Of a stretch of 37,368 nucleotides of DNA, positions 747-28,200 are shown in pieces. Source of the stretch: a virus (taxonomy: Duplodnaviria > Heunggongvirae > Uroviricota > Caudoviricetes). Numbering within the stretch: the first letter of the stretch is position 1; each line of letters begins with the position of its first letter. A program made the position numbers and the translations under genes. Under the pieces are notes generated by a model. That model did not search any database, was not told where the DNA came from, and worked only from the letters and a program-made list of their open reading frames with translations. The stretch lies in IMG/VR virus record IMGVR_UViG_2537561825_000012; one strand, 5' to 3'.

Positions 747-824
747 TGATGCGCCGCGCGATAAATGCACTCTATCTTGTGCGATAAATGGCATCCACGC
801 GGCGTTTCATTATTTGAAAAAGAA
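747..824. mobile_element. Prophage terminus (Mu right-end-like) with repeated putative transposase-binding motifs
   Basis: Starts 5'-TG at 747-748. CGCGATAAATGCAC (757-770) and GCGATAAATGGCAT (781-794) are direct repeats 24 bp apart; CGTTTCAT at 803-810. Resembles the Mu R-end sequence as remembered. Confidence 0.5.
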
Positions 825-1397
825 TTACATTTCAGGTTGCGTTATGACAGTCCCAACAGGGTGATAGCGGTAGATCGTTGACAGTCCAATATCATAGATA
901 ATTGCCAGCCGCTTTCTGTCATACCCTTTCTGGAGCAATCTTGCGATCTGCTCATGCTGCTCCTTCGTCAGTTTCGGGCGACGTCCTCCAACTCTTCCTT
1001 GTGCTCGCGCAGCAGCCAGTCCAGCCAGCGTGCGCTCAACTATCAGTTCACGCTCCATTTCTGCCAGTGCACCCATCATATGAAAAAAGAACCTTCCCAT
1101 CGGAGTGCTGGTATCGATTGAATCCGTCAGACTGCGAAAATTGACACCTTTTGCGCGTAGCTCTTCTGTGAGAGCAATGAGGTGTTTCATTCTTCTACCC
1201 AACCGATCCAGCTTCCAGACCACCAATGTATCCCCTCTTTTAAGGCACTTTAAAGCGCGTTTCAGGCCTGGTCGTTCCGACTTGGTTCCGCTCATTTTGT
1301 CCTCAAAAATCTGTTCACATCCTGCGCACATTAATGCATTGCGTTGCAAATCTGTGTTTTGGTCATTTGTTGACACACGTATGTAGCCAATCAGCAT
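825..1397 (-). CDS. gin: Serine DNA invertase, Gin/Pin/Cin/Hin family
   Basis: N-terminus MLIGYIRVSTNDQNTDLQRNAL from ATG at 1397-1395 with AAGGGAG RBS; ~190 aa. The ORF-track N-terminal extension to 1526 is rejected. Confidence 0.9.
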   Translation of the reverse strand: MLIGYIRVSTNDQNTDLQRNALMCAGCEQIFEDKMSGTKSERPGLKRALKCLKRGDTLVVWKLDRLGRRMKHLIALTEELRAKGVNFRSLTDSIDTSTPMGRFFFHMMGALAEMERELIVERTLAGLAAARAQGRVGGRRPKLTKEQHEQIARLLQKGYDRKRLAIIYDIGLSTIYRYHPVGTVITQPEM

Positions 1398-1451
1398 TAA
1401 AAATACTCCCTTTTGAGTGGTTAAAGTACTGAGATAATGTGGGGAGGATTT

Positions 1452-1477
1452 GAGAGATAAACGTTGGTTTGGGGGAA
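1452..1477. other. gix-like 26-bp recombination site C (inverted relative to sites A and B)
   Basis: GAGAGATAAACGTTGGTTTGGGGGAA; its reverse complement TTCCCCCAAACCAACGTTTATCTCTC aligns with sites A and B; sits about 55 bp upstream of the invertase start. Confidence 0.55.
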
Positions 1478-1930
1478 GGCTCTGCATTGCCTGTTGGTGT
1501 ACCGGTTCCATGGCCCACCGCCACACCGCCAGCAGGCTGGTTACAGTGCAACGGAGCTACGTTCACCAAAGAACAATATCCTGTTCTGGCCAGAGTCTAC
1601 CCGACCCTCCGTCTTCCCGATTTGCGCGGTGAGTTTATCCGTGGATGGGACGGTGGTCGCAAGGTTGATACCGGGCGTGCGCTACTTTCATTTCAGGAAG
1701 GGACTATCGTATCCGGTTTTGATGATAATGATACCGGAGATATCAGTTCGCTCGGCTCTACACAATACGGATTTGGTGACGCTTTAACCTCTAATCAACT
1801 GGGGGTCTTAAATGGCAAAAAGTGGATATTTGATGCATCCTCTAAAGGTGCACAAAGATATGACTGGTGGGCTTATGTATCAGCTCGCCCCCGCAATATC
1901 GCATTTAACTATATCGTGAGGGCGGCGTGA
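1469..1930 (+). CDS. Silent alternative tail-fibre C-terminal cassette (Sv3), inverted relative to the expressed fibre gene
   Basis: Shares the conserved LGEGSALPVGVPVPWPTATPPAGW...RGEFIRGWD.GRKVDTGR block and C-terminal RPRNIAFNYIVRAA with the other two cassettes; no promoter or constant part on this strand. Confidence 0.7.
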   Translation: MGEGSALPVGVPVPWPTATPPAGWLQCNGATFTKEQYPVLARVYPTLRLPDLRGEFIRGWDGGRKVDTGRALLSFQEGTIVSGFDDNDTGDISSLGSTQYGFGDALTSNQLGVLNGKKWIFDASSKGAQRYDWWAYVSARPRNIAFNYIVRAA

Positions 1931-1936
1931 TACCGT

Positions 1937-2551
1937 TCAGCCGGCAAGCGCCAGTGGCGCTTCCGGCCAGCTGATTTCAGGTGCCTTGCTGATATCCAGT
2001 GCGTTCAGCTCGTCGATATAATCCAGCACGGCGTTCAGTTTTGCCGTTTCTTCTGGTTTCAGACTGCGACCAGCACGCAGTTTGAGGTTGATAAGATCGA
2101 CGGACGCCATCGCCTGTTTCACCCGTTGCTGGCGTTGCTGTCTGGCAACCTCCAGTTCTGCGGCTCGCTGCCGTTCAGTATCGGTTACCCACGCCTCACC
2201 GTTCCAGGTATCCCATGGCGTGGCTGGCTGTTTTGTGGTGGTGTCCGCCGGGTAATCACCCGGTTGGGTAATCAGAACGGGGTTACCGTTCTCCGTGCTG
2301 TATACCGTCTCGCCGCGGTGATCAGGCACATGCTCCCACCCGTTCAGCGTGGCAGTCCGGCAAACCACGTAACCCGAAATTGCTTCCGGCGGTGCATCGG
2401 CGCACGAATGTGCCGGAGTACCCACCCCAAGGGCGAGATACTCCACAGAGGATGAGGTGTATTCCCGGGTTTCCTCGTCATAGTGATATACAGTGATATC
2501 GCCCGCTACAGTGGCGATACCGTTTTCATCCAGAACTGCAGTGTTACTCAT
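1937..2551 (-). CDS. Tail fibre assembly protein (Tfa; Mu U / P2 gpG-like)
   Basis: 204 aa, position immediately after a fibre cassette; start overlaps the Sv2 stop (TAATG) with a GAGGG RBS. Confidence 0.75.
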   Translation of the reverse strand: MSNTAVLDENGIATVAGDITVYHYDEETREYTSSSVEYLALGVGTPAHSCADAPPEAISGYVVCRTATLNGWEHVPDHRGETVYSTENGNPVLITQPGDYPADTTTKQPATPWDTWNGEAWVTDTERQRAAELEVARQQRQQRVKQAMASVDLINLKLRAGRSLKPEETAKLNAVLDYIDELNALDISKAPEISWPEAPLALAG

Positions 2552-3033
2552 TAAACTGCCCTCACAATGTAATTAAGTGCAATGCTACGGGGTCTGACAG
2601 TGATACCCTTCGCATACCCGCTTCTGATAGAGGTCAGAATAGTAGCCTGCATACCATTGTCTGACATTGCCACGACAGGATCGCTGAATGTTGTCCCGTC
2701 CGGCATTTTAAAGCTGCCCTCACGAAGGTCTGTAATGGAATCTTCATTGTTGAATCCCATGCCGACTATCCCCGAGGTTCCCGTAGTGTCCTGGTTATAA
2801 TAATCCAGCATTGCTGTTCTTAACAGCGTTGCCCCTTGTGCGGACAGCAACTTACGTCCTGTATCAACTTTGCGCCCGTCGTCCCATCCACGGATAAACT
2901 CACCGCGTAAATCGGGAAGACGGAGGGTCGGGTAGACTCTGGCCAGAACAGGATATTGTTCTTTTGTAAAGGCGCGCCCGTCGCACTTTAACCAGCCTGC
3001 TGGCGGTGTGGCGGTGGGCCACGGAACAGGCAC
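2551..3033 (-). CDS. Silent alternative tail-fibre C-terminal cassette (Sv2), same orientation as the expressed gene but out of frame with it
   Basis: Begins inside the conserved repeat block; frame differs from the upstream fibre ORF (whose stop lies at 3074-3076), so it is not read-through product. Confidence 0.65.
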   Translation of the reverse strand: MPVPWPTATPPAGWLKCDGRAFTKEQYPVLARVYPTLRLPDLRGEFIRGWDDGRKVDTGRKLLSAQGATLLRTAMLDYYNQDTTGTSGIVGMGFNNEDSITDLREGSFKMPDGTTFSDPVVAMSDNGMQATILTSIRSGYAKGITVRPRSIALNYIVRAV

Positions 3034-3054
3034 ACCAACGGGTAGCGCCGAGCC

Positions 3055-3080
3055 TTCTCCTAAACCAACGTTTCTATGCC
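3055..3080. other. gix-like recombination site B (direct relative to site A)
   Basis: TTCTCCTAAACCAACGTTTCTATGCC at the upstream edge of the second copy of the ~190-bp conserved block. Confidence 0.5.
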
Positions 3081-4327
3081 GCCCTTACGATGTAATTAAA
3101 CGCAATGTTACGGGGACGAATGGTCACATAATTAACCCCATCGCCTCGCGAAGGACCTGCAAATGAAAAACGGGAGAATCCAGGTTGGTTGTCAAGGATT
3201 TGGTCATAGTTATTGATTGAATGACCAGACCCAATGTCAAAATTACCTGCGTAATGAGAAAAACTTGTACCATCCTGCCGTGAAAGCAGATCGCGCCCTG
3301 TATCCACTTTTCGCCCGTCGTCCCATCCACGGATAAACTCACCGCGCAAATCGGGAAGACGGAGGGTCGGGTAGACTCTGGCCAGAACAGGATATTGTTC
3401 TTTTGTAAAGGCGCGCCCGTCGCACTTTAACCAGCCTGCTGGCGGTGTGGCAGTGGGCCACGGAACAGGTACACCAACGGGCAGCGCCGAGCCTTCCCCC
3501 AAACCAAGGTAATTGAGGACATCTTTTATACTGCCCTTAGCGATAATAGCGCGACCAATAGCTGTAAGGGTTGCCAGCTCTGCGCGGTCTGCTCCGGTAA
3601 AATAAGGCAACCGATCTGCTGCAGTGGCAAGTCCTGCCAGAGCAGTGAGCGTGGCATCTGCCGGTTGTTTTCCGTTTGCCAGATCGTATGCAGCCTTGAC
3701 CGCTTTCGGTGTGGCGGCCAGTATTTCAGACGTGCTGTTGATGGCACTGCTCAATTGTACGGTGCCTTTTGCCGTCAGCGAGGCAGCAGGCACTCCCGTT
3801 ATCTGACTCCACGGGTGAGTGTGGCTGACGGGCGCCTTGCCGGCTGCAAGGTCGTATGCAGCCTTGACCGCCTTCGGCGTGGCAGCCTCAGTTTCTGATT
3901 GACTGTCCGTGGCGCTGCTCAGTTGTACGGTGCCTTTTGCCGTCAGCGAGGCAGCAGGCACTCCCGTTATCTGACTCCACGGGTGAGTATGGCTGACGGG
4001 GGCCTTGCCGGCAGCCAGGTCATATGCAGCCTTGACGGCCTTTGGTGTGGCGGCCAGCGTTTCAGAGGTGCTGTTGGTGGCACTGCTCAGTTGGGTGAAC
4101 CCCTTAGCTGTCAGTGTCGCGTCCGGGTGGTTACGGGAACGTACGTGTTCAGCCAGTGACTGTGCGGCTTCCTCCGTTTTTTTCTTCAGCCATTTCGTCC
4201 TGTTTGCCAGTTGCCGGGGGGCTCGATTTGATATCCCGTCTGCACCACCCAGAACCGGATCTGATGTCTCCAGTTGATAGATATTTTCTTCCCACTTTTC
4301 TGTTTCATTCAGGTTTCCCATAATCAA
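3074..4327 (-). CDS. Tail fibre protein (constant part Sc fused to cassette Sv1 in the present orientation)
   Basis: 417 aa; three tandem 56-aa repeats (TAKG..QLSSA.....AATPKAVKAAYDLA.GK); C-terminus carries the conserved cassette block. Confidence 0.85.
   Translation of the reverse strand: MIMGNLNETEKWEENIYQLETSDPVLGGADGISNRAPRQLANRTKWLKKKTEEAAQSLAEHVRSRNHPDATLTAKGFTQLSSATNSTSETLAATPKAVKAAYDLAAGKAPVSHTHPWSQITGVPAASLTAKGTVQLSSATDSQSETEAATPKAVKAAYDLAAGKAPVSHTHPWSQITGVPAASLTAKGTVQLSSAINSTSEILAATPKAVKAAYDLANGKQPADATLTALAGLATAADRLPYFTGADRAELATLTAIGRAIIAKGSIKDVLNYLGLGEGSALPVGVPVPWPTATPPAGWLKCDGRAFTKEQYPVLARVYPTLRLPDLRGEFIRGWDDGRKVDTGRDLLSRQDGTSFSHYAGNFDIGSGHSINNYDQILDNQPGFSRFSFAGPSRGDGVNYVTIRPRNIAFNYIVRAA
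3494..3519. other. gix-like recombination site A at the Sc/Sv junction
   Basis: TTCCCCCAAACCAAGGTAATTGAGGA; homology between cassettes begins immediately downstream (transcript sense) of this site. Confidence 0.55.
3640..4111. repeat. Tandem 168-bp coding repeat, about 2.8 copies, inside the tail fibre gene
   Basis: GTCGTATGCAGCCTTGACCGCC-type segments recur at 3683, 3851 and 4019 (period 168 bp = 56 aa). Confidence 0.8.
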
Positions 4328-4902
4328 CTGCTCCCGTGGTTATAACTGCCATCATGGATGGCGGTATTGTTATAGCGAATGGCCACAGACTGATACTCCA
4401 GGCTGGCCAGATGGCAGCGGGCCGGTGCAAATGCAGCGAGCGTCTGACGCAGCATCGCGGCCTGATCGTTAGTAATGGGCTGTTTCAGAATAACGCGATA
4501 AACTGCCCAGGCGGCTGCATCTCCATGAACAAACAGTCCGTTATAGCTGCGATTGCCGTCGTAACTGAGACGACCTGTGCCTTCAATCAGATCCACTTCA
4601 CCAAAGCCAAAACGGCGGATAACTTCCCGGATTGACCACGGCGTCCCTTTATACCGGTGCAGTTCGATGGCTGCTTTTATAAGCATGCGGCGAACATCGT
4701 CCGATTCCGCCAGCTCCCAGCCATCGCCAGACAGTGAGAACTGCTCGCCCAGCCATGGCAGCGCGGAACTGTCGACGATATCGACGAGAAAGACCATCAG
4801 TACGCTCAGGTCGATGTTATCCAGCCGTCCTGCCAGTCTTCCCAGCGTCCTGAGACTGATATCACCCTCAAGCGGTGGCGGGAGTTGTAATGGCTCAGTC
4901 AT
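4324..4902 (-). CDS. Tail protein (P2 gpI-like / Mu gp48-like baseplate component)
   Basis: 192 aa ORF directly upstream of the fibre gene in a P2-type V-W-J-I-H-G order. Confidence 0.7.
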   Translation of the reverse strand: MTEPLQLPPPLEGDISLRTLGRLAGRLDNIDLSVLMVFLVDIVDSSALPWLGEQFSLSGDGWELAESDDVRRMLIKAAIELHRYKGTPWSIREVIRRFGFGEVDLIEGTGRLSYDGNRSYNGLFVHGDAAAWAVYRVILKQPITNDQAAMLRQTLAAFAPARCHLASLEYQSVAIRYNNTAIHDGSYNHGSS

Positions 4903-5998
4903 CAGACACTCCAGTCATGTTAAGAGTGATTGCCGTACAGTTTGCCCATTCGTTTTCTGCCACCCCCCGCAGTGCCGGTGTCACCAGTTCAACCTGGTAC
5001 ACCCCGGAAACGGACAATGCACTGATAATCTGGCTGGGGACAATATCGCGCCCCAGCGTGGCGGCACGTGATGCCACCCAGTTCTGTATGGCGCTGTTAG
5101 CGGCATCTTTTACAGACCTGGCATCCTGATCACGATAGATCGTAATCTTGGCTTCAATGGTGTAATCCACCTTCACTGGTGTTTTAGCCCGCACTGTATC
5201 AGTGAGTGGCCTGACTTTCTCATCAGAGCAGAAACTCTCTACCAGCGTGAGAACACCGCCGTCCGGCAGACCGGTACTGAGCAGCGGATACAGATCTACG
5301 GTCCCGGGAACCGGGGAAAGCACAGCAACATCGACAATGTTGGGATGGGCCTGCATGGCATGAAAGCGGTATGCGCCACGGCTTCCGGCATTGGTGAATG
5401 ACTCCGGGGCCAGCCTGATACGCTCCCGGAGCCTGTCATCGTCTTCCTGTTCTGAACCGCCGGAACTGGCCGTCAGATTGCTCACCAGCAGGTCGACGTT
5501 ATCAATCTCATCGAGTAACTGACTGCCCTGCGCAGGTTGCCAGCCGTTACCAGCGGTACCGGGTTCGGTACAGGTGGACGTGACATTGACCAGCAGCAAT
5601 CCGGCCTTCAGTACCACATCTGTATCGGTGGCAAAAATAACGCTGTCGGAAGCGCTGACGCGGGTGCCTGCCGGGATCAGCACATCAATGGCCAGTGCCT
5701 CATCTACGGAGAACTGGAGCGTGGTAGTGGCAGGCTGCGCGGCAAGACGGTATACACCGACCAGTTCACCGAGGTAATCAATCATCGGCTCACGGGCAAA
5801 GGCGACCAGATTCTGCTTTGCTGCCTCCTGTACCGCAACCCTGACCAGCATTTCGCGATAGGCCCACAGATCAATCAGCAGACGTTCTGCCTGTGCCGGG
5901 TACAGCGTTTTGCCGGTATCCGCTTCATACTTCGCAATCATTTCTGCCGTGATTTTGTCGGCATCGCGTTCAATAAAATCGGGTTCTGTCAGCGCCAT
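4895..5998 (-). CDS. Baseplate J-like protein (P2 gpJ / Mu gp47-like)
   Basis: 367 aa; position and size in baseplate cluster. Confidence 0.75.
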   Translation of the reverse strand: MALTEPDFIERDADKITAEMIAKYEADTGKTLYPAQAERLLIDLWAYREMLVRVAVQEAAKQNLVAFAREPMIDYLGELVGVYRLAAQPATTTLQFSVDEALAIDVLIPAGTRVSASDSVIFATDTDVVLKAGLLLVNVTSTCTEPGTAGNGWQPAQGSQLLDEIDNVDLLVSNLTASSGGSEQEDDDRLRERIRLAPESFTNAGSRGAYRFHAMQAHPNIVDVAVLSPVPGTVDLYPLLSTGLPDGGVLTLVESFCSDEKVRPLTDTVRAKTPVKVDYTIEAKITIYRDQDARSVKDAANSAIQNWVASRAATLGRDIVPSQIISALSVSGVYQVELVTPALRGVAENEWANCTAITLNMTGVSDD

Positions 5999-27330: not shown

Positions 27331-27435
27331 CATCGCCCCACAGGAATGCGCTGTGAGCCGACCAAGGTTCAGTCAGTCTCGCGAGACCTGACCAGACTGC
27401 CATATTTTTTAATAATTGTAAAAGGCTTGCAGATT

Positions 27436-28200
27436 ATGAAAATGCAGACATTACCCATCGTGCCGTGGATTGGTGGCAAACGCCGCCTTGCAAAACACAT
27501 TCTGCCGCTGTTTCCGGCGCATGAATGTTATGTGGAGCCGTTTTGTGGGGCAGCAGCGCTCTATTTTCTTAAGACACCCGGCAAGATCGAAGTCATCAAT
27601 GATATCAACGGTGAACTGGTGAATCTGTACCGGGTGGTAAAGCATCACCTGGAAGAATTTGTCCGCCAGTTCAAATGGGCGCTGGTCAGCCGTCAGATCT
27701 ACAAATGGCTGCAGATCACCCCGGAAGAAACACTGACGGATATCCAGCGTGCGGCACGGTTCTACTACCTTCAGAAGCAGGCGTTTGGCGGCAAGGTGGC
27801 AGAGCACAGCTTCGGTACCTCCACCACATCCCCGCCACGCTTCAACCTGCTACGTATTGAAGAAGAACTGTCAGCGGCACACCTGCGGCTTTCCAGAACA
27901 GTCATAGAACACATGGACTGGCAACAGTGCATTGAGCGTTATGATCGTCCGCACACGCTGTTCTACTGCGACCCACCGTACCTGGGTACGGAAGGCTATG
28001 GTGTGGATTTTCCTGAAGGGAACTACTCGCGGCTGGCAGAGCTGGCCCGGTGCATCAGAGGAAAAATGATAATTTCGGTGAACGACATCCCGCAGATGCG
28101 CGAGGTGTTCACTGGACTGAACATACAGACAGTGAATATCAACTACAGTCTGGCGGGTAAACCCACGCCGCGCCGTGAACTGCTAATCTGCAACTTCTGA
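27436..28200 (+). CDS. dam: DNA adenine methyltransferase, Dam family
   Basis: WIGGK, EPFCGAAA and CDPPY motifs; ATG at 27436 (the ORF-track start at 27346 is upstream). Confidence 0.8.
   Translation: MKMQTLPIVPWIGGKRRLAKHILPLFPAHECYVEPFCGAAALYFLKTPGKIEVINDINGELVNLYRVVKHHLEEFVRQFKWALVSRQIYKWLQITPEETLTDIQRAARFYYLQKQAFGGKVAEHSFGTSTTSPPRFNLLRIEEELSAAHLRLSRTVIEHMDWQQCIERYDRPHTLFYCDPPYLGTEGYGVDFPEGNYSRLAELARCIRGKMIISVNDIPQMREVFTGLNIQTVNINYSLAGKPTPRRELLICNF

Follow-up and report, generated by a model that had tools for sequence, protein, structure and literature searches.

The tail-fibre locus analyzed here lies within a 37,368-nt stretch of viral DNA (IMG/VR record IMGVR_UViG_2537561825_000012, Caudoviricetes; hereafter the window) that, judged by its genes, represents a BcepMu-like transposable prophage. 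An active DNA-inversion switch of the Gin/Cin/Pin/Min (Din) type operates here; with three crossover sites it is a multiple-inversion system (one with more than two such sites), and it brings three alternative tip cassettes (Sv1, Sv2 and Sv3) in frame onto one constant fibre shaft (Sc). The locus holds one gene, tfa, for a tail-fibre assembly protein (Tfa). We put the probability at about 0.55 that this Tfa is a single shared chaperone for gp37-type tips, indifferent to the head that each tip bears, and is not the private chaperone of Sv2, the cassette to which its gene is coupled. A single tfa per multi-cassette array is the norm in this family and not an oddity, and the window shows this common one-tfa design in its smallest multi-cassette form. 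Positions are counted from the first letter of the window and strands are those of the window; "this isomer" denotes the arrangement found there.

A profile search of all open reading frames (ORFs) of at least 30 aa in six frames, with filters off, recovered one tfa, three collar cassettes and one serine invertase from the window (Table 1). It found no second tfa, the runner-up tfa match having an E-value of 0.34, and the sequence-only reading that had first described this locus had therefore overlooked no tfa-like ORF. The invertase, the only one of the window, is a serine recombinase of small size in which a resolvase catalytic domain at the N-terminus is joined to a helix-turn-helix (HTH) domain at the C-terminus (Pfam); its gene is transcribed away from the invertible segment, with the same polarity as the fibre gene. 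The crossover sites A, B and C are each 26 bp long, with a conserved half-site and a central AA in the common form TTC(C/T)CC(C/T)AAACC-AA, and presumably match the published gix/cix/hix consensus; site C is inverted. Dozens of related loci, P1-like, P2-like and other ones among them, likewise have the core TTC(T/C)CC(C/T)AAACCAACGTTT upstream of their invertase. An independent repeat finder returned A (3282-3510) and B (2843-3071) as direct repeats (93%) and C (1459-1704) as an inverted one (86%). With A and B direct and C inverted, inversion is possible only between A and C (2041 bp) or between B and C (1602 bp). The sequence-only reading missed what follows from three sites, namely four predicted isomers, with tfa antisense in two of them while Sv1 or Sv3 is expressed: isomer 1, Sc-Sv1 followed by Sv2-tfa> <Sv3 (the window); isomer 2, Sc-Sv3> <tfa-Sv2 <Sv1; isomer 3, Sc-Sv1 followed by Sv3> <tfa-Sv2; and isomer 4, Sc-Sv2-tfa> <Sv3 <Sv1. 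The two with antisense tfa are isomer 2, which expresses Sv3, and isomer 3, which expresses Sv1.

Recombination in silico at the central AA joined both Sv2 and Sv3 to the shaft in frame, and the simulated Sc-Sv2 and Sc-Sv3 junctions were 100% identical to those of real genomes. Among 5,426 complete Escherichia coli genomes, the window-colinear arrangement was present in 165, the Sc-Sv2 junction in 283 (including EC958 and JJ1887), the Sc-Sv3 junction in 166 and the invertase-Sv2 junction in 222 (including JJ1886). All four predicted isomers occur in this sample at comparable frequency. JJ1886 and JJ1887 carry the locus at near-identical coordinates and in different isomers, and isomer 4 was seen directly in a deposited ST131 prophage record (L003). 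Since the fusions are in frame and all isomers are found in real genomes, Sv2 and Sv3 are functional alternatives and not degenerate fragments, a weakness that the sequence-only reading had considered; both are intact.

In this isomer, Sv1 forms the in-frame 3' end of a 417-aa fibre ORF (3074-4327, minus strand) with Pfam Collar at aa 285-332, and its TAG stop (3074-3076) sits within the right (outer) half of site B. Sv2 is silent here, lying in direct orientation immediately downstream of Sv1 and in a reading frame different from that of Sv1. The tfa ATG (2549-2551) overlaps the Sv2 TAA (2551-2553) as TAATG and is preceded, 7 nt upstream, by a GAGGG Shine-Dalgarno sequence. Sv3, also silent, is convergent with tfa, with 6 nt between the two stops. 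The ORF listing and the raw sequence thereby bear out the single tfa starting on the Sv2 stop, as originally described, and the rest of that description also stands: an expressed Sv1 followed by site B and a silent, direct Sv2 without a Tfa of its own, a tfa equipped with its own ribosome-binding site, and an Sv3 converging on the tfa 3' end, so that tfa becomes antisense once Sv3 reaches the shaft. The shaft itself contains three tandem 168-nt repeats (~3669-4172; 79-86% identical), which encode Phage_fiber_2 repeats. Their copy number varies among relatives, the fibre having 545 aa in the sibling locus L002 against 417 aa here. In the RefSeq annotation of one ST131 genome (L001, NZ_CP032201, 3670-6324), the expressed fibre gene is labelled a pseudogene "missing N-terminus" and the silent cassettes appear as separate "phage tail protein" genes; these labels look like annotation artefacts of the switch.

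All three cassettes match the Pfam Collar domain (PF07484, E ~1e-15); common to them are a collar of 71 aa, 93-100% identical, and the C-terminal sequence RPR(N/S)IA(F/L)NYIVRA(A/V), whereas their heads, which differ in length (Table 1), are mutually only 19-30% identical. Compared with the T4 gp37 tip (PDB 2XGF), Sv2 gave an E-value of 4e-14 and aligned at the collar and again at the C-terminal IAFNYIVR; this double alignment implies that the chain exits the collar, builds the head and returns, as in gp37. The window tips appear to resemble gp37-type tips in their working, but their heads are of a different, shorter kind. No H-x-H motif was found within the first 30 head residues of Sv1, Sv2 or Sv3, and the head of Sv4, a tip of the sibling L002, lacks it as well; about one-third of related heads carry H-x-H at the head start, as in the metal sites of T4 gp12/gp37. 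Within arrays, the motif showed no clear association with adjacency to tfa (19 coupled and 31 uncoupled for heads without H-x-H, 18 and 16 for heads with it). We reject, as not supported, the idea that the cassette at site B is a recent duplication: the Sv1 and Sv2 heads are only 21% identical, the Sc-Sv2 junction recurs in the 283 genomes mentioned above, and relatives commonly stack up to 8-9 cassettes in tandem. In databases, some homologues of the cassettes bear the name "integrase".

The tfa product scored 94.9 bits against PF02413 (cut-off 22.1). Its close homologues combine PF02413 with PF28596 (Caudo_TAP_N), the latter also being carried by a homologue 96% identical to it. Tfa is ~31% identical to lambda Tfa over nearly the whole length and ~30% identical to T4 gp38 over aa 18-124. 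An AlphaFold2 (AF2) model, with a predicted local distance difference test (pLDDT) score of 89.7, shows a beta-rich part (residues 1-123) followed by a hairpin of two helices (125-159 and 166-184). This predicted two-module build fits the modular Tfa model, in which the N-terminal domain binds the fibre and the helical C-terminal domain drives trimerisation (PMC9608196). The window shares with T4 gp37/gp38 and lambda Stf/Tfa both the gp37 collar and the IAFNYIVR strand, together with a Tfa homologous to gp38 and lambda Tfa; in contrast to the window, the T4 and lambda systems do not invert, and the window heads are much shorter (58-86 aa) and lack H-x-H at the head start. Lambda Tfa can reportedly replace gp38 in the assembly of gp37, and in lambda Tfa and gp38 one type of chaperone serves very different heads.

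We favour a shared Tfa because Tfa is independent of the head, head types change position and non-inverting phages always keep tfa. For this comparison, ~150 viral loci with Sv1- or Sv3-like cassettes were fetched, and collar cassettes, tfa and invertase were mapped in them by iteratively built profiles; removal of redundancy left 88 loci. Over 98 unique coupled pairs, the first 85 aa of Tfa stayed ~61% identical where the adjacent heads were <25% identical. Likewise, 257 of the 382 locus pairs with Tfa at least 90% identical had heads <30% identical, and in two-tfa arrays the N-domains are 73-79% identical and the heads 14-24%. As to position, Sv3-type heads were convergent in 3 cases, tandem in 4 and coupled in 1, and Sv3-like heads are directly coupled at 76% identity in L032 and at 55% in L093/L094. 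Sv4-type heads were convergent in 4 cases and coupled in 1; such a head is convergent in L002 and coupled in L025. Both coupled and uncoupled members were present in 9 of the 12 largest head clusters.

The count of tfa genes points the same way across the 88 loci, in which multi-cassette arrays mostly have one tfa. Single-cassette loci carry tfa directly downstream in essentially every complete case (~50 of 50 intact ones). The only complete candidate for a collar-tip phage without tfa (L068) was rejected, as IS1 is inserted right after its cassette; the element (4506-5009, with an InsB-like ORF) stands in place of the expected tfa. Of the two-cassette loci, 16 carry a single tfa and 7 carry two; for arrays of 3-9 cassettes, the corresponding numbers are 9 and 1. 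This last array, with five cassettes (L007, 4926-6976), is the only one of at least three cassettes with two tfa; its two copies are 100% identical and form an inverted duplication, in which two identical 79-aa heads diverge from one point. Large one-tfa arrays comprise eight tandem cassettes, tfa and one inverted cassette (L011/L090), five cassettes, tfa and three inverted cassettes (L009), or five cassettes and then tfa with one cassette on the opposite strand (L024), while in the two-cassette sibling L002 Sc-Sv2-tfa faces a different tip, Sv4. Arrays of 4-5 cassettes with a single tfa are likewise present in an E. coli prophage of true Mu-like type, which has a gp45-48 baseplate (L156), and in a P2-like prophage of Salmonella (L157/L158); the one-tfa layout recurs in the P1-like elements L005 and L010. 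Two different isomers of the Salmonella prophage are present in two genomes. Crossover sites are confined to the 5' ends of cassettes, so that in any isomer two cassette runs converge at just one point, and this point was always occupied by the cassette-tfa-cassette unit. Arrays of 2-9 tips usually keep one tfa there, which leaves it antisense in half of the isomers. In all architectures seen, the invertase and the fibre operon point the same way.

The shaft can be joined in frame, at a 26-bp site, to any of the three receptor-binding tips. A shared Tfa, related to gp38 and lambda Tfa, would most likely act on the conserved collar and C-terminal part. Acting on a part that is common to all cassettes, one copy could therefore serve three tips. 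In this isomer, tfa follows the fibre gene on its strand and is probably co-transcribed with it, no terminator-like site being predicted on the minus strand between the Sv1 stop and tfa. Tfa would be translated from its own GAGGG ribosome-binding site, which matters because the upstream Sv2 is untranslated here, so that translational coupling cannot operate. For isomers 2 and 3, our guess is that assembly would be reduced or chaperone-independent. If one Tfa does serve all gp37-type tips, cassettes could be swapped in engineered phages or tailocins without the transfer of a matching chaperone.

Several observations weigh against a shared, head-indifferent Tfa. Relative to the fibre operon, tfa is antisense in isomers 2 and 3, and no isomer can express Sv3 together with a sense tfa. 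A consensus scan of both strands of 800-4500 gave no sigma-70-like promoter for independent expression of tfa, and phage transcription cannot reach the invertible region from beyond the invertase, since only ~78 nt separate the invertase from the prophage end. A strictly needed Tfa would thus be missing in about half of the lysogens, yet cassettes at the convergent position are intact everywhere despite having no sense-oriented tfa. Sv1-type heads (at least 60% identical; 6 unique in one tally, 10 in another) were never found directly coupled to tfa, although "never coupled" is weak evidence for a small head family, since only 1/n cassettes per array can be coupled. Structure searches with the Tfa N-domain did not recover the solved Mu Tfa (PDB 5YVQ), and common ancestry of the loci, as opposed to function, could account in part for a Tfa conserved across heads. 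Possibly, the tips of the antisense isomers fold without Tfa, perhaps less efficiently, or receive Tfa by a route invisible in the sequence, or about half of the lysogens make poor fibres. As one-tfa arrays outnumber two-tfa arrays, we argue that the cost of an antisense tfa is small. The survey turns the puzzle of chaperone supply into a concrete one, whose sole non-ordinary part is the antisense isomers.

Isomers 1 and 3 both express the Sv1 tip and differ in the orientation of tfa. It is conceivable, though we consider it unlikely, that the flipping of Sv2-tfa-Sv3 is a second, independent switch that turns the chaperone on and off. If so, and if Tfa either stays on the tip like Mu Tfa or determines how efficiently the tip folds, the four isomers would give four phenotypes, not three. 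Sv1 fibres with and without a Tfa cap might then differ in host range, or particles with defective fibres might be released by a constant share of lysogens. This reasoning would extend to the many arrays of 3-9 cassettes with a single tfa at the convergence point.

The sequence-only reading had offered two alternatives, namely that the variants differ in chaperone requirement or that they share one Tfa. Sharing is the better supported of the two, by the head-independent conservation of Tfa, the mobile head types and the tfa of single-cassette phages, whereas a differing requirement is less probable. In the latter case, Tfa would be needed only by Sv2, which has the largest head (86 aa), and Sv1 and Sv3 would fold alone or via host chaperones, making the antisense isomers cost-free. 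This would explain why isomers 2 and 3 and the convergent cassettes stay intact while never accompanied by a sense tfa, and it agrees with Sv1-type heads never having been found directly followed by tfa and with Sv2-type heads (at least 98% identical) always being coupled. Mutations in T4 gene 37 can reportedly bypass gene 38, and T4 gp12, another collar-domain fibre, is not known to use gp38, both of which count in its favour. It is harder to reconcile with a Tfa that is conserved whatever the adjacent head, with head types (Sv3-like and Sv4-type) that are coupled in one phage and uncoupled in another, and with the retention of tfa by ~50 of 50 intact single-cassette collar-tip phages.

That universal linkage of tfa to single cassettes would be reconciled with intact convergent cassettes if all tips needed Tfa and it were made in every isomer, either from an unrecognised promoter (on the Sv2-tfa unit or on the invertase side) or in trans, with late read-through into the co-oriented invertase scrambling many genome copies per cell. 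The invertase is indeed co-oriented with the fibre operon everywhere seen, with no terminator predicted between them, and a possible extended -10 element, TGAGATAAT (1431-1439, plus strand), points into the invertible segment. This element is followed by GGGGAGGA (1431-1448 in all, plus strand). We nevertheless regard supply in every isomer as improbable, and the element as a speculative tfa promoter: the promoter scan of both strands of 800-4500 flagged nothing, the hand-spotted element included, and comparison of the invertase-upstream sequence between phage groups showed neither an obvious common promoter pointing inward nor conservation of TGAGATAAT. A shared, activator-dependent internal promoter is unlikely because the phages that carry such arrays (Mu-, P2- and P1-like) differ in their late activators, and in Mu, G inversion is rare during lytic growth, which also counts against this supply. 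Least probable is decay, in which the prophage would be defective, the missing tfa copies would be deletions and Sv1 and Sv3 would be leftovers without working fibres. Classical relatives with two tfa exist, and the RefSeq pseudogene label on the fibre gene in one ST131 genome could be taken that way, but this label looks like an annotation effect of the shaft repeats. Moreover, all three cassettes keep their full length and frame, the switch works and yields four isomers at comparable frequency, one-tfa arrays recur across many unrelated phage backbones and genera, and the Mu-like structural and transposition genes of the window are complete.

The locus is a switch of an already-described kind, whose three-site, four-variant architecture was published in 2014. 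In a P2-like prophage of enteropathogenic E. coli (EPEC) E2348/69, Goldberg et al. 2014 (PMC4272514) described three partly homologous repeats, two overlapping inversions and four variants, with three alternative C-termini for one fibre protein and the four coexisting variants shown by polymerase chain reaction (PCR). This "shufflon" has the same architecture as the window, with inversions of ~2200 and 1800 bp against 2041 and 1602 bp here (PMC4272514), but its backbone is P2-like whereas that of the window is BcepMu-like and transposable, and PMC4272514 does not discuss a tail-fibre assembly gene. In the literature we found no paper on the switch of the ST131 prophage. The Min multiple-inversion system of plasmid p15B and related P1-like phage-plasmids is reportedly the classical, larger version. 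As here, it has a Din-family invertase, several sites and one constant fibre 5' part with several 3' ends; unlike here, where three sites give four isomers, the p15B system has six sites and a far larger number of isomers, and it resides on a P1-like plasmid and not in a transposable prophage. In the P1-like loci L005 and L010, the crossover core is the same, one tfa is present and the cassettes are of the collar type, some of them bearing Sv1-like heads (64% identical). The Mu G segment (S-U/S'-U', Gin), the P1 C segment (Cin) and the e14 P segment (Pin) likewise have a serine invertase beside an invertible fibre region, with the crossover at the constant/variable boundary, and switch host range; unlike the window, they have two sites and a symmetric pair of variable ends, each followed by its own tfa. 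This symmetric layout was found in a minority of the collar-type relatives surveyed. At E-values up to 1, neither the window cassettes nor Tfa matched the sequence of the solved Mu fibre-Tfa complex. Such switches set the host range of temperate phages and phage-plasmids across Enterobacteriaceae, and the prophage of the window is carried by hundreds of sequenced E. coli genomes, including ST131 strains such as EC958.

Table 1. Features of the inversion locus, in window coordinates.
Feature	Position	Strand	Description
Serine DNA invertase, Gin/Cin/Pin/Min type	825-1394	-	189 aa; Pfam Resolvase E 8e-51 and HTH_7 E 1e-12
Crossover site C	1452-1477	-	inverted relative to A and B; minus strand reads TTCCCCCAAACC AA CGTTTATCTCTC
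Cassette Sv3	1466-1930	+	collar, 69-aa head, C-terminal strand RPRNIAFNYIVRAA; Pfam Collar E 1e-15
tfa	1937-2551	-	204 aa; Pfam Caudo_TAP E 5.6e-27
Cassette Sv2	2551-3066	-	collar, 86-aa head, then RPRSIALNYIVRAV; Pfam Collar
Crossover site B	3055-3080	-	direct relative to A; plus strand reads TTCTCCTAAACC AA CGTTTCTATGCC
Cassette Sv1, expressed tip of this isomer	3074-3505	-	collar, 58-aa head, then RPRNIAFNYIVRAA
Crossover site A, shaft/tip boundary	3494-3519	-	plus strand reads TTCCCCCAAACC AA GGTAATTGAGGA
Constant fibre shaft Sc	3506-4327	-	Pfam Phage_fiber_2 E 3e-56

The genes of the window include an rve transposase, a MuB-like ATPase, Gam, GemA, a Mu-type portal and P2/Mu-type baseplate and sheath proteins, the Mu-like set of structural and transposition genes being complete, and a close relative of the phage is classified as Bcepmuvirus. 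The prophage ends at ~747; the window and the ST131 copy are identical from 747 on and unrelated before. In the ST131 genomes examined, the same phage adjoins aroA. A "yafV-like" CN-hydrolase ORF (267-794) matches only positions 104-255 of the 256 of its profile, and its first ~16 codons are phage DNA; from the partial match we conclude that the transposable phage inserted into a host CN-hydrolase gene. At the left edge of the window lies an ORF fragment (1-225, 74 aa) with no Pfam match, which we take to resemble the C-terminal end of a transposase of the H-repeat/ISAs1 type. A gene for a D12-class (Dam-like) N6-adenine DNA methyltransferase (27346-28200) lies in the prophage's early region.

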